In this document: piece after piece, positions 14,346 through 18,256 of the stretch
How positions within the stretch are numbered: the stretch's first letter is position 1
Layout: each line of letters opens with the position of its first letter
Virus record (IMG/VR): IMGVR_UViG_3300018073_000025
Location: 1-25,846 of that record
Direction: 5' to 3' (one strand)
DNA length: 25,846 nucleotides
Source of the DNA: a virus
Lineage: Duplodnaviria > Caudoviricetes
Made by a program: the position numbers and the translations under genes
The notes under the pieces: model-generated
The model's input: only the letters and a program-made list of their open reading frames with translations
Databases searched by the model: none
Told to the model about the DNA's origin: nothing

Positions 14346-14672
14346 ATGAGTGATAAAACGTATAATTTTCTCAAGTTTTTGGCGATCGTAGTTCTTCCTG
14401 GTCTTGGAACGTTATATTTTGTCATTGCTCAGATCTGGGATCTGTCAAATGGGCAACAGGTAATCGGTACAATTGCTGCTATAAACGTATTTTTAGGAGC
14501 AATCCTTGAGTTCTCTAGTCATTCTTATTATAAGAGTGATGATCGCTTTGATGGGAGTCTGGATGTCGTACAGAAAGACCCCCTTACACAGACATATTCG
14601 CTCAATTTGAACTCCGATCCGCAAGATCTGATTGGTAAGAACGAAGTCATATTCAAGGTAAATCCTCAATAG
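14346..14672 (+). CDS. Holin (Dp-1-like) with soluble C-terminal extension
   Basis: AGGAG RBS. Two hydrophobic helices; 'MSDKTYN.LK.LA..VLP.LGTLY......W....Q.IGTI.AI..FLG' matches the Dp-1 holin pattern. Located at the end of the tail module. Confidence 0.75.
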   Translation: MSDKTYNFLKFLAIVVLPGLGTLYFVIAQIWDLSNGQQVIGTIAAINVFLGAILEFSSHSYYKSDDRFDGSLDVVQKDPLTQTYSLNLNSDPQDLIGKNEVIFKVNPQ

Positions 14673-14676
14673 GTTT

Positions 14677-14705
14677 TCGCGGGCTATACAGGGCCTATAA
14701 TGAGA
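14677..14705 (+). promoter_or_regulatory. Conserved motif copy 1 (putative phage promoter)
   Basis: TCGC-GGGCTA-TACA-GGGCC-TATAAT-GAGA, followed by CCCTATTGAGAGGAA and ATG 14725. Confidence 0.75.
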
Positions 14706-14724
14706 CCCTATTGAGAGGAACAAC

Positions 14725-15009
14725 ATGCTTATTCGAAGAACTGAGCACGAAACAGGACTTGAGAAGGCCATTAACGACATTCTAGTTCAAATGTCCACTA
14801 CATCACCAGATAACAAAGAGTATTCTGCAATGTGTGACCAGCTGGTTAAGCTATATGAGCTGAAGAAGATTGATCTTCCTCCGCAAGTAAGCCCAGATAC
14901 GCTGGTGATCGTTGCAGGAAACCTCCTTGGAATCTTGCTGATTGTGAACTATGAGAAGATGGAGATTCTGACCTCGAAAGCCCTAAGTTTGGTGCTGAGA
15001 CTACGGTAA
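14725..15009 (+). CDS. Hypothetical protein with C-terminal hydrophobic segment (cassette gene)
   Basis: GAGAGGA RBS, 94 aa, hydrophobic 'LVIVAGNLLGILLIV'. Flanked by the motif and a terminator. Confidence 0.8.
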   Translation: MLIRRTEHETGLEKAINDILVQMSTTSPDNKEYSAMCDQLVKLYELKKIDLPPQVSPDTLVIVAGNLLGILLIVNYEKMEILTSKALSLVLRLR

Positions 15010-15033
15010 CAGTTGACCATTAACAGGCGAGAC

Positions 15034-15083
15034 GGAAGAGGCGTGTAGAAAGTAAGTAAAATCTATACGCCTTTTCTTTTTTT
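15034..15083 (+). terminator. Rho-independent terminator
   Basis: GAAGAGGCGTGTAGA / TCTATACGCCTTTTC stem (with G-U pairs) followed by T7. Confidence 0.8.
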
Positions 15084-15130
15084 CATCTCAAAAATTCCCC
15101 GGGGGTAGATCCTGAAAAACTATTTTTTAC

Positions 15131-15159
15131 TCGCGAAAATTACATAGCCTATAATGAGA
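15131..15159 (+). promoter_or_regulatory. Conserved motif copy 2
   Basis: TCGC-GAAAAT-TACA-TAGCC-TATAAT-GAGA. Confidence 0.75.
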
Positions 15160-15290
15160 AGAGCTCCGAAAGGAGATTGAGACACTAATGTCCAGGTTCG
15201 AGTCCTGGCCAATGTGCTGTCACGGAATGAACAGACAGTTAACGAGTGAATTTTAGTTGGATTCACTACCTCTTCTCTTTTTTTGTTTTT
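15156..15290 (+). ncRNA. Candidate structured small RNA, unit 1 (contains a tRNA T-arm-like hairpin)
   Basis: No + strand ORF with RBS. GAGAAGAG(15156-63)/CTCTTCTC(15270-77) closing stem then T-tract. Internal hairpins: CTCC-GAAA-GGAG, GACA-CTAA-TGTC, CCAGG-TTCGAGT-CCTGG, CTGTC..GACAG, AGTGAAT..ATTCACT. Confidence 0.55.
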
Positions 15291-15319
15291 TCGCAAAAAC
15301 TACATAGCATATAATGAGA
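15291..15319 (+). promoter_or_regulatory. Conserved motif copy 3
   Basis: TCGC-AAAAAC-TACA-TAGCA-TATAAT-GAGA, 160 bp after copy 2. Confidence 0.75.
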
Positions 15320-15450
15320 AGAGAAATCGCCATACCAAATAAGGACGATTGAAAAGCCGGTAACCCCGTAATAGATTTATGATAGCCAGTATTCGAAAGA
15401 ATACGTAGCAGAACACAAATGGATTCGGCTAAAACTCTTCTTCTATTTTT
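15316..15450 (+). ncRNA. Candidate structured small RNA, unit 2
   Basis: AGAAGAG(15317-23)/CTCTTCT(15435-41) closing stem then T-tract. Internal AATCG..CGATT, AGCCG..CGGCT and GTATTC-GAAA-GAATAC (15389-15404). Confidence 0.5.
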
Positions 15451-15479
15451 TCGCGAGAAATACATGGCCTATAATGAGA
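15451..15479 (+). promoter_or_regulatory. Conserved motif copy 4
   Basis: TCGC-GAGAAA-TACA-TGGCC-TATAAT-GAGA, 160 bp after copy 3. Confidence 0.75.
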
Positions 15480-15528
15480 AGAATGCTCCTAGAGCGACCA
15501 TCAATCCAGATGGTTCTTCTTTTTTTTT
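15476..15528 (+). ncRNA. Candidate short structured RNA or attenuator, unit 3
   Basis: AGAAGA/TCTTCT closing stem enclosing GCTC-CTA-GAGC and ACCATC-AATCCA-GATGGT, ending in T9. Confidence 0.45.
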
Positions 15529-15555
15529 GTCCATTCCAAATGTGAGGAGATCCGA

Positions 15556-15669
15556 ATGAATTCTAAAGAGTATGGATTTTTAAATTTTCTAGGTGATGTG
15601 TTTATGATCTGCCTTACCTGTGGTTTTTGGTTGGTCTGGATATTCGTCAGGGAGATGCGGCGCCGATGA
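15556..15669 (+). CDS. Small membrane protein (37 aa; absent from the ORF track)
   Basis: GAGGAG RBS. MNSKEYGFLNFLGDVFMICLTCGFWLVWIFVREMRRR*. ATGA-coupled to the next gene. Confidence 0.75.
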   Translation: MNSKEYGFLNFLGDVFMICLTCGFWLVWIFVREMRRR

Positions 15670-16442
15670 TTTCAACTGATTTTTCCTCCAGGATTCAAAA
15701 ATTTATCTCAGACAACGCACCTACAATTCTGACTACTGTGGGTGTTACAGGAACTTTGGTAACGGCATATCTTGCTGGGAAAGCGTCATTCCGTGCAGCT
15801 GAGCTCATTGCTAGAGAAGAGGAGATTCTCCAACGTTCCCCATTTGATCGACCCGTTTTTAAGCTACAGGATAAGATTAAGCTTGTTTGGACTCTTTATA
15901 TTCCGGCGGCCACAACGAGTGTTACGACGATTGTCAGTATCATTGCTGCTAACCGGGTTAGTGATAAACGCGCGGCTGCGATGGCTGCGGCATTCACTAT
16001 ATCCGATCGCGCTTTTACTGAATACAAAGAAAAGGTGTTTGATAGACTTGGCAAGGGTAAGGAACAGAACATTCGAGATGAGATTGCACAAGATCGTGTC
16101 AATAAAGACCCACCGCACGAGAGCTCAGTCATCATTACAGGGTCGGGGGAGGTTCTTTGCTACGAGTTATTTACAGGAAGATACTTCAAAAGTACCATGG
16201 AAAACATAAAGAAAGCGCAAAACGATATAAATCATCGGATTCTGACTGGTTCTTCAGCCTCTTTAAGTGAATTCTACAATTTGATGGATCTTCCAACAAC
16301 AGCACAGTCTGATGAAGTGGGATGGAACTTAGACAGATTGCTCGAATTGAGATTCTCATCGGTTCTTACTGATGATGGCAGACCCTGTCTCTCAATCGAC
16401 TACAGCGTTGTCCCAATCAGAAGTTATTGGAAGATTGGGTAG
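15666..16442 (+). CDS. DUF6353-like phage protein, paralogue A
   Basis: ATG 15666. 'NAPTILT..GV.G...TAYLA.KA', 'LYIPAA', 'AA..ISDRAF.EYKEKV', 'SLSEFY..MDL......VGW'. Similar along its length to 19104..19991. Family name from recall. Confidence 0.7.
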   Translation: MISTDFSSRIQKFISDNAPTILTTVGVTGTLVTAYLAGKASFRAAELIAREEEILQRSPFDRPVFKLQDKIKLVWTLYIPAATTSVTTIVSIIAANRVSDKRAAAMAAAFTISDRAFTEYKEKVFDRLGKGKEQNIRDEIAQDRVNKDPPHESSVIITGSGEVLCYELFTGRYFKSTMENIKKAQNDINHRILTGSSASLSEFYNLMDLPTTAQSDEVGWNLDRLLELRFSSVLTDDGRPCLSIDYSVVPIRSYWKIG

Positions 16443-16701: not shown

Positions 16702-16968
16702 ATGAGTAAGCTTGTTGATCGTGTTAGGACGTATAAAGTTGCCAATGATGTCACTGATCATGTCGAACAGCATAAGACGCTATATTCTAGCCTTGCAACA
16801 GGCGTTGGGTTTGCAATAATTACATATGTTATAATGAGAGCCAGACCACAACTTGGCAATTTTGTCATCGGCGACACTACCAACGGTGCTATTGTATGCA
16901 TTATTGGAGAAAAGGCCGTGTTGTCAAATGTGTCTTTCGTTTCTCCGCAAGGAGTCCCGTCGGCGTAG
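16702..16968 (+). CDS. Hypothetical membrane protein overlapping motif copy 5
   Basis: 88 aa with hydrophobic 'LATGVGFAIITYVIM'. Tight spacing after the previous stop. The 3' half may be non-coding in origin. Confidence 0.55.
   Translation: MSKLVDRVRTYKVANDVTDHVEQHKTLYSSLATGVGFAIITYVIMRARPQLGNFVIGDTTNGAIVCIIGEKAVLSNVSFVSPQGVPSA
16811..16839 (+). promoter_or_regulatory. Conserved motif copy 5 (intragenic, one mismatch in the first box)
   Basis: TTGC-AATAAT-TACA-TATGT-TATAAT-GAGA, with the same spacing as the other copies. Confidence 0.6.
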
Positions 16969-16970
16969 CT

Positions 16971-16999
16971 TCGCGAAATATACAACCCTTATGATGAGA
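16971..16999 (+). promoter_or_regulatory. Conserved motif copy 6
   Basis: TCGC-GAAATA-TACA-ACCCT-TATGAT-GAGA, then CCCCTATTGAGAGGAA and ATG 17021. Confidence 0.75.
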
Positions 17000-17020: not shown

Positions 17021-17227
17021 ATGTCCGAGTCCGAAACGATTCAAACCCCTGAGACCATCTACGTTATCGAGAAGAGAACCCCTCTGCTGACGCCTAGGCT
17101 CAAGAAGATTGTCATCATCACCGCAAGTGTGTTGACAGTCCTTATTGGAGCCAAGGTCATCTGCAGTCAGGTTGAACAACTTGATGGCGATCCGGCCCCA
17201 GAGATCGAATCCAAAGATAAGGCCTGA
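17021..17227 (+). CDS. Small single-pass membrane protein (cassette gene)
   Basis: GAGAGGA RBS. 68 aa MSESETIQTP...KKIVIITASVLTVLIGAKVIC.... Followed by a terminator. Confidence 0.75.
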   Translation: MSESETIQTPETIYVIEKRTPLLTPRLKKIVIITASVLTVLIGAKVICSQVEQLDGDPAPEIESKDKA

Positions 17228-17950: not shown

Positions 17951-17979
17951 TCGCGAGTTTTACAACCCTTATGATGAGA
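17951..17979 (+). promoter_or_regulatory. Conserved motif copy 7
   Basis: TCGC-GAGTTT-TACA-ACCCT-TATGAT-GAGA, then CCCCTACCCGAAAGGAA and ATG 18002. Confidence 0.75.
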
Positions 17980-18001: not shown

Positions 18002-18256
18002 ATGTCCAAGACACTTATCGCCAAACGAATTGTATCATTCATCGTTGGTGCTGGTGCTGCCAAGATTATCTCTGGCATTGTAACTCATAACACTGATCCC
18101 GAAAATATTTACGACTCCGTAACTATCGTCGCAGGCTCAATGGTTATGGGTGCAGTGCTAGCTGAACATTGCAAGCAGTACACAGACAAATCGATTGATG
18201 AGATCATCGCTATTTGGCAAGGTGAGAAGAACATTTTTCATATCCATCACGCGTAA
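18002..18256 (+). CDS. Small hydrophobic protein (cassette gene)
   Basis: AAAGGA RBS, 84 aa with two hydrophobic stretches. Between motif copy 7 and a terminator. Confidence 0.75.
   Translation: MSKTLIAKRIVSFIVGAGAAKIISGIVTHNTDPENIYDSVTIVAGSMVMGAVLAEHCKQYTDKSIDEIIAIWQGEKNIFHIHHA

Follow-up and report, generated by a model that had tools for sequence, protein, structure and literature searches.

The window, that is, the whole stretch of 25,846 nucleotides analysed here, is a fragment of a tailed phage that carries head and tail genes, a holin (14346-14672), an accessory region and then a primase-polymerase. The phage is of the 1706/Rima/Pepy6 type and belongs to the supercluster related to Lactococcus phage 1706. 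The ORF preceding the array described below matched 209 cultured phage records, all at less than 60% identity and all from phages of Arthrobacter, Gordonia, Streptomyces, Rhodococcus or Microbacterium; the host is probably an actinobacterium. Sequencing runs containing the region came from freshwater sediment and soil. The following features lie in the accessory region:

14677-15083, + strand: upstream protein cassette, consisting of a promoter motif, ORF 14725-15009 (phrog_5818) and a terminator-like hairpin
15131-15159, + strand: promoter-like motif 1, TCGC-N6-TACA-N5-TATAAT-GAGA, predicted start at 15153-15156
15153-15284, + strand: unit 1, predicted RNA of about 130 nt, member of family A
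15291-15319, + strand: promoter-like motif 2, a match to the motif
15313-15450, + strand: unit 2, predicted RNA of about 135 nt, closing stem 15316-15323/15435-15442
15451-15479, + strand: promoter-like motif 3, a match to the motif
15473-15528, + strand: unit 3, predicted RNA of about 55 nt or attenuating leader, with an inner hairpin (15496-15515) that is terminator-like by itself
15556-15669, + strand: 37-aa hydrophobic ORF with a Shine-Dalgarno (SD) sequence at 15544, no promoter motif of its own and only a weak PHROG match
16811-16838, + strand: motif copy within ORF 16702-16968 (88 aa), the next copy lying 160 bp on
16971-16998, + strand: motif copy heading ORF 17021-17227
17951-17978, + strand: motif copy heading ORF 18002-18256

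This placement fits the promoter-gene-terminator cassette of the 1706/Pepy6 clade, in which, within the central accessory region, the motif stands directly before a small cargo and a T-run terminator. Just upstream of the RNA units, at about 15090-15108, an A-tract is followed by a CCC/GGG palindrome; the same arrangement was seen in other loci (L002 at about 3370, L079 at about 3390, and L333) and is a possible origin or protein-binding site.

The original prediction described 15131-15528 as a tandem array of ORF-free, structured RNA units, each headed by a promoter and repeated with an exact 160-bp period. Most of this layout was borne out. The three motif copies begin at 15131, 15291 and 15451 and are followed by GAGAAGA(G/A) at 15156, 15316 and 15476; the complementary arms lie at 15270-15277, 15435-15442 and 15513-15521, each with a T-rich run after it. 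Units 1 and 2 each have their T run directly adjoining the next motif, both contain GAAA tetraloops, and nhmmer found no match among the three bodies. Folding against shuffled controls gave z-scores of -2.5, -3.2 and -3.1 for units 1, 2 and 3 when the closing stem was included, and -2.0, -1.35 and -3.8 when it was left out. The description of the units as free of ORFs needed qualifying, in that unit 1 holds an SD-preceded frame of 22 codons, yet this frame is unconserved. We rejected it as coding, with an ATG in 31 of 55 homologs and lengths of 3-29 codons, 12 of them just three codons long. Leaderless peptides starting at the ATG in AATGAGA were likewise rejected (ATG in 35/47, lengths 4-38).

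The exact period did not survive comparison, since it differs among strains and relatives. A 160/160 spacing was found only in this assembly and in a second one (L001). In strain X8, single-base deletions at 15286 and 15445, both in T runs, give 159/159, and among the matches listed strain X14 also has the deletion at 15286, for a spacing of 159/160. X7 and X21 have 73 extra bases after unit 2; this insertion, placed after window position 15447, ends in a copy of the 3' end of unit 2 and may be an extra short unit. Across loci the spacings after GAGAAG-headed units range from 78 to 393 (n=94), with 160 in this phage only, and the long loci contain just two pairs of consecutive RNA-unit spacings, 160/160 here and 124/146 in L356. 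The chance of two equal spacings is about 0.6-1.6%. A third 160-bp spacing in this phage runs from 16811 to 16971; in strain X8, 481 other letters replace 16789-16969. The exact spacing is coincidental, and the idea of a periodic tandem array was dropped, as neither is the period conserved nor are the units alike.

The motif itself is well defined. Seven + strand copies occur in the window, compared with none in 100 shuffles, and it is not confined to the array: of the four other copies, at 14677, 16811, 16971 and 17951, three head ORFs with an SD sequence and an ATG. GTDB genomes gave 12 matches to the motif pattern, all but one on contigs no longer than 60 kb. When promoters were instead collected starting from a payload (47 found payload-first), TCGCA and an upstream AC were nearly invariant and the spacing was fixed. 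At the second position of TATAAT, which matters most in sigma-70 promoters, 35 of these 47 had A. Together with a co-occurring polymerase, described next, the few GTDB matches and this non-sigma-70 base pattern argue that the motif is a promoter for a phage polymerase.

A second, longer assembly of this phage, with 99.85% identity over 4.8 kb, encodes an 894-aa protein of PHROG 4291 with HTH/sigma-4-like ends, in which an ADFDGD sequence is invariant in 119/119 aligned homologs. Searches of PDB by sequence and by profile detected no relation to known polymerases. An AlphaFold model (pLDDT 77) compared by VIA-align resembled RDR2 (Z 12.1, rmsd 4.7, 364 residues aligned), QDE-1 (Z 9.4, rmsd 5.0, 363 aligned) and phage P74 gp62 (Z 9.3, rmsd 5.6, 346 aligned). 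The protein thus has the DxDGD catalytic loop and, in the model, the double-psi barrel fold of two-barrel RNA polymerases. The gene, of the single-chain two-barrel type, was present in 20/20 near-complete motif-bearing genomes tested, and 8000 of the 8000 candidate protein clusters scored were polymerase homologs. On the basis of this co-occurrence it is very probable that the phage's own two-barrel RNA polymerase reads the motif. A putative YonO/RdRP-like polymerase, of the same protein family, has been predicted for this supercluster (bioRxiv 10.1101/842583); unlike the present analysis, the part of that account available to us names no promoter and no non-coding products. The literature searched gave no demonstration of activity for this predicted polymerase. 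In Pepy6 the annotation of the homolog (gp106, L330 37544-40258) notes similarity to a 1706 structural protein, a hint that the polymerase is packaged in the virion.

The position of the transcription start decides whether the two arms of each unit can pair within the RNA. The original prediction had cautioned that, with TATAAT as a -10 box, the 5' arm would largely precede the start. From at least 330 loci we extracted 248 distinct units consisting of the motif followed by GAGAAG; among the matches listed, 150 were closed, 60 headed ORFs and 38 were of other kinds. By a strict rule, 126/248 units close, compared with 31.0 +/- 4.3 (maximum 42 in 200 runs) when the heads were shuffled. Where the head is not GAGAAG, the 3' arm is mostly altered to match (24 cases listed). 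The base after an exact CTTCTC is A in 51/88 units, against 11% further on (p 3e-26), and this A pairs with the last T of TATAAT. In contrast, no enrichment was seen for the base that would pair with the T three positions further upstream (3/32). Enrichment at the first of these bases without enrichment at the next informative one points to a 5' end at -3 to -1, and positions -3 and -2 are purines in 47/47 payload-first promoters. The RNA is therefore likely to begin 1-3 nt before GAGA, inside TATAAT. With such a start the transcript would include the 5' GAGAAG, which would pair with the 3' arm that precedes the T run, so that these statistics largely resolve the earlier caveat. Two metatranscriptome contigs from one rhizosphere study (a strain about 96% identical) start with the first (14702) and the second (14703) base downstream of the TATAAT in the upstream ORF cassette; as contigs cannot show starts, these ends are a weak hint. 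In the terminators of the window's ORFs the T run is preceded by the same kind of pyrimidine-rich arm, a hint that each RNA unit supplies the 5' arm of its terminator from its own 5' end.

The picture of a constant frame around a variable payload, with each structured RNA independently promoted, was supported by these comparisons, in which the frame recurs across the clade; a stand-alone unit 3 was not, and short units mostly head ORFs. Among the matches listed, 145 closed units of less than 200 nt fall into 88 BLAST clusters, the largest of which has 35 members, including three loosely joined ones (L046, L226 and L278). Folded alone, the payloads have a median z of -1.6 (n=132), compared with -0.1 for controls (n=78). 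Among them are degenerate tRNAs behind the same promoter, their anticodon loops being abnormally short or enlarged (L046, L226, L005/L063/L087/L143/L191, L079 4712-4785 and Poco6/Pepy6). L108, L179, L356 and Qui each carry more than one RNA unit in an array. We also noted further payload clusters with several members (L002/L273/L318; L035/L056/L231; L076/L137/L238; L124/L133/L215), a payload of three tandem copies of a hairpin of about 28 nt (L007), and near-empty units of 21-29 nt in L310, L028, L073 and L058 that comprise promoter, closing stem and T run. At L076 1396-1432 there is a pistol-ribozyme-like 5' half (31 bits; gathering threshold 34.5) that is cut by the end of the locus.

Unit 1 belongs to the family that we call A, in the alignment of which the following elements were placed:

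15156-15163/15270-15277, + strand: closing stem, complementary arms
15176-15181/15209-15213, + strand: helix P1, with bulged A15180
15184-15188 with 15253-15257, + strand: kissing loop
15192-15208, + strand: T-arm-like P2, with loop 15197-15203
15251-15260, + strand: P4 loop

In general the architecture comprises the closing stem, a short helix from which an A bulges, a 5-bp arm, an optional middle hairpin, and a 6-nt loop that kisses a UUUU(C/A)GUUGG loop; P1 may stack on the 5-bp arm. Unit 1 has in addition an extra 5' hairpin with a GAAA loop and a U tail. A 7-nt loop of T-loop type on a 5-bp stem is found in unit 1 and in 20/40 members. The subfamily of the window has the added 5' hairpin and mostly canonical T loops; at 15202, a close strain carries the base that is canonical for a T-loop.

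Iterated nhmmer searches brought together 55 members of family A, of which 40 entered a curated alignment; the 15 left out include cultured-phage copies and five members with broken kissing pairs (L221, L077, L059, L259 and one of L064; 1-2 of five pairs). In the 40 sequences 93.3% of cells are paired, compared with 72.1% in shuffles and 29-40% in slid controls, and 19/23 pairs change on both sides, compared with 14.0 in shuffles, these shuffle controls ignoring kinship among members. Covariation was seen at every pair of P1, P2 and P4 and at 3/5 pairs of the kissing helix, and eight columns are invariant. An uncurated automatic parse of 48/55 members found 114/144 kissing-core pairs to be Watson-Crick, compared with 75.7 +/- 4.6; seven rows were unparsed, and misassignment of the window row and of L108 lowered the count. 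When genomes were scanned for the payload only, each of 47 distinct hits had a promoter within 75 nt (control 5%). The model scores unit 1, itself a training sequence, at 77.5 bits, and recognised unseen copies in the cultured phages Conley (Gordonia, 85.9 bits), Pepy6 (Rhodococcus, 66.8) and Qui (Arthrobacter, 64.6); there was none in the Rima stretch searched. Family A is accessory, being present in 14/37 selected records and in 6/20 near-complete genomes. Side observations concern L311 and the first unit of L108, which are family-A-like but have the P1/P2 junction or the P4 loop enlarged by long insertions, and L067, which was considered as a permuted tmRNA and turned out to be family A.

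Comparison with Rfam and with relatives, which the original prediction had put forward among its checks, found no Rfam family in the array and a unit 1 structure that is conserved and covaries in relatives. Rfam 15 gave three weak matches in window 14600-16000 (best 21.8 bits against a gathering threshold of 38) and, among the family A homologs of 20 loci, only freshwater-2 (26.1 bits, E 1.9). ARAGORN reported 0 genes, and in the array there was no Rfam tRNA match and no cloverleaf. Neither the array nor the family A homologs matched YrlA/Y RNA in Rfam, the Ro-site motif being compared by eye, or the hammerhead, twister, pistol, hatchet and HDV ribozyme models. The comparative evidence thus supports family A well as a structured RNA family, with a covarying predicted fold and without a match in Rfam.

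For the other units there is less comparative material. Unit 2 has two motif blocks in common with a single further phage unit of the same frame (L333, identical with L236), its one likely relative in IMG/VR; two sequences yielded no consensus fold and no covariation support. L332 and L334 matched the pattern and were rejected as relatives, as they lie in unrelated coding context without the promoter. For unit 3 nhmmer found no homolog among the collected units. It is followed by an ORF, not a promoter, and short units generally behave in this way: those of 50 nt or less are followed by an ORF in 19/27 cases and by a promoter in 3/27, whereas a promoter comes next in 41/118 longer units. This size class, the terminator-like hairpin and the promoter-less 37-aa ORF downstream suggest that unit 3 is, with somewhat better than even confidence, a leaky leader that also feeds the operon of this ORF, which would be the first gene read from motif 3. 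The ORF is below the usual size cut-off and by eye resembles the small membrane-protein family found after family A. A type I toxin-antitoxin arrangement with it was considered and rejected, because the units are on the same strand and their longest antisense matches lie elsewhere, at or near chance.

Taking these results as a whole, we lean slightly towards a model of RNA-bearing expression cassettes, with the RNA of unit 1 as a decoy. Cassettes of this phage would hold a folded RNA in place of a protein gene. The two-barrel polymerase would start inside the TATAAT of each motif, and the first bases of the RNA would pair with the last, so that the whole molecule closes into its own terminator stem. 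We think it probable that units 1 and 2 are released in this way as discrete RNAs of about 130 nt with protected ends. Once released, unit 1 would serve as a tRNA-shaped decoy for a host RNA-binding protein of defence or processing. That family A is a tRNA mimic or protein decoy is a guess, to which we give somewhat less than even weight. The position of P1 on a 5-bp T-loop arm, the canonical base at 15202 and the degenerate tRNAs in the same frame favour tRNA mimicry. Counter-defence cargo is usually accessory, as family A is, which favours a decoy. Against it, 20/40 members have no T-loop, and a D arm, an anticodon arm and CCA are all missing. The RNA contigs contain no discrete transcript; none covers unit 3, and none covers the array in X22-X24, although absence of a contig is no evidence. 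The only one over the array, X21 (depth 4), spans units 1 and 2 with the promoter that separates them, as would be expected from read-through or DNA carry-over.

Several other explanations have to be set against this model. The units might be cis-acting 5' leaders, in which a switch that senses a ligand or a protein, or else an antiterminator resembling put, sets read-through at the closing stem into an operon. A cis role fits the finding that family A lies before a promoter-less ORF in 34/47 loci, that ORF belonging in 11 to one small membrane-protein family, and it would also account for the short units that precede ORFs and for the contig spanning two units. However, units 1 and 2 of the window are directly followed by a promoter, as are 8/47 family A loci and 41 of the 118 units longer than 50 nt, and the ORFs downstream of family A fall into 15 unrelated groups. 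We consider this reading unlikely for the system as a whole and probably right for unit 3. Family A could also be a new self-cleaving ribozyme or a processing signal that trims phage transcripts, as its compact pseudoknotted fold with eight invariant columns in 40 sequences and the sub-threshold pistol-like hairpin in the related locus L076 (31 bits) might suggest; known ribozyme models do not match, and cleavage would gain a stand-alone promoter-terminator unit little, making this quite improbable.

If the motif were instead a host sigma-70/HrdB promoter, transcription would start about 7 nt after TATAAT and the closing stem would fall outside the RNA. TATAAT is indeed a perfect -10 consensus, unit 1 scores 10/12 with an 18-nt spacer, and a start at +7 would still leave units 1 and 3 folded. 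Yet a search for sigma-70 sites found three, compared with 2.6 expected, and the second A of the -10 varies (A in 35/47), so that the combination of a -35 hexamer and a near-invariant second A is not seen; moreover, covariation of the 5' and 3' arms extends to T(-1) and the RNA contigs begin at +1 and +2, so that we regard a sigma-70 promoter as very unlikely. Much the same weight attaches to a purely DNA-level role without RNA function, which we judge slightly less credible again, with the motif as a recombination boundary and inverted arms folding in ssDNA for cassette exchange. A 32-bp repeat bordering genes that rearrange has been proposed for cluster AU phages, in the part of that source available to us (10.1101/2020.01.10.891226), strains gain 73 bp at the array, and near-empty units exist; but the strand-specific T run, the tRNA payloads, the T-loops and the kissing pseudoknot would be unexplained, and recombination through shared promoters fits the cassette model too. 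Finally, unit 1 might be an RNA anti-CRISPR that mimics a repeat, or the units might be guides, the latter having been raised in the original prediction for a neighbouring protein. Positions 15161-15183 match part of CRISPR-DR36 (21.8 bits, E 0.053), a score far under the gathering threshold of 38; the hairpin concerned is missing in most homologs and the next 8 nt are taken up in the covarying P1. A CRISPR array has a conserved repeat with variable spacers, whereas the shared part here is the promoter and the payload is conserved as structure. Within the window, antisense matches of units 1 and 2 were not above chance, and the 12-nt match of unit 3 was equalled in 5/200 shuffles. The guide proposal thus found no backing, and we hold repeat mimics and guides alike to be extremely improbable.

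Returning to the cassette model, a wider and more doubtful extension is that this very large clade uses the promoter and self-closing stem as a socket for exchangeable RNAs, forming an undescribed class of RNA counter-defence effectors with family A as the commonest; tRNA-shaped and other decoys would then titrate host proteins that act against phages or process RNA. Should the RNAs prove to be decoys, folded RNA would be a far more widespread means of phage counter-defence than the few known cases show. Quite apart from this, family A occurs in the cultured phages Conley, Pepy6 and Qui, a simple sequence rule yields dozens more candidate RNA families from one clade, and the predicted start and terminator logic makes a compact RNA polymerase directly testable.

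Family A is a new RNA family within a known cassette system that is broader than the array alone. For cluster AU phages a 32-bp boundary repeat has been described (bioRxiv 10.1101/2020.01.10.891226), related regions appear as the 'segments of genome expansion' of Summer et al. 2011, as cited in PMC5759034, and PMC13313380, in the part available, mentions only the shared architecture. The cassettes of 1706, ReqiPepy6 and clusters AM, AU, AW, BI, CC, DJ and EL belong to the same clade and, as far as these sources could be consulted, occupy the same place after the tail and holin genes as here. The window motif matches Giantsbane 29094-29153, inside the published 28.5-30 kb region, and, judging by this position, is most likely the published 32-bp repeat. 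Whereas the published accounts, in the portions available, deal with protein genes and recombination, the present analysis adds RNA-only cassettes, a stem that closes 5' on 3' end, and a predicted start site. RNA cassettes were not described in the literature searched, most subscription papers lying outside it. Short family A motifs were absent from the searchable supplements of PMC10690425 and PMC8040213; the model archives of both lay outside the search, so family A may be among their unnamed candidates.

Known tRNA mimics include the YrlA Y RNA and the tRNA-like domain of tmRNA. Like tRNAs and these mimics, family A has a short acceptor-like helix on a 5-bp arm with a 7-nt T-loop, and degenerate tRNAs share its frame; unlike them, it has no ARAGORN or Rfam match, no D or anticodon arm and no CCA, half of its members have no T-loop, and a kissing loop replaces the elbow contacts. 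The promoters of the T7, AR9 and phiKZ phage polymerases overlap the start site. Here, too, conserved sequence continues through the predicted start into the transcript, although the consensus is another one and the enzyme is a compact single-chain two-barrel polymerase with HTH ends. A further parallel is offered by species 1 and 2 of T4, stable phage RNAs of unknown function encoded in tRNA clusters. Both these and the units described here are accessory phage RNAs of about 120-140 nt near tRNA-like genes; unlike the T4 species, each RNA here has its own promoter and a self-closing terminator frame, into which many exchangeable payloads are set.
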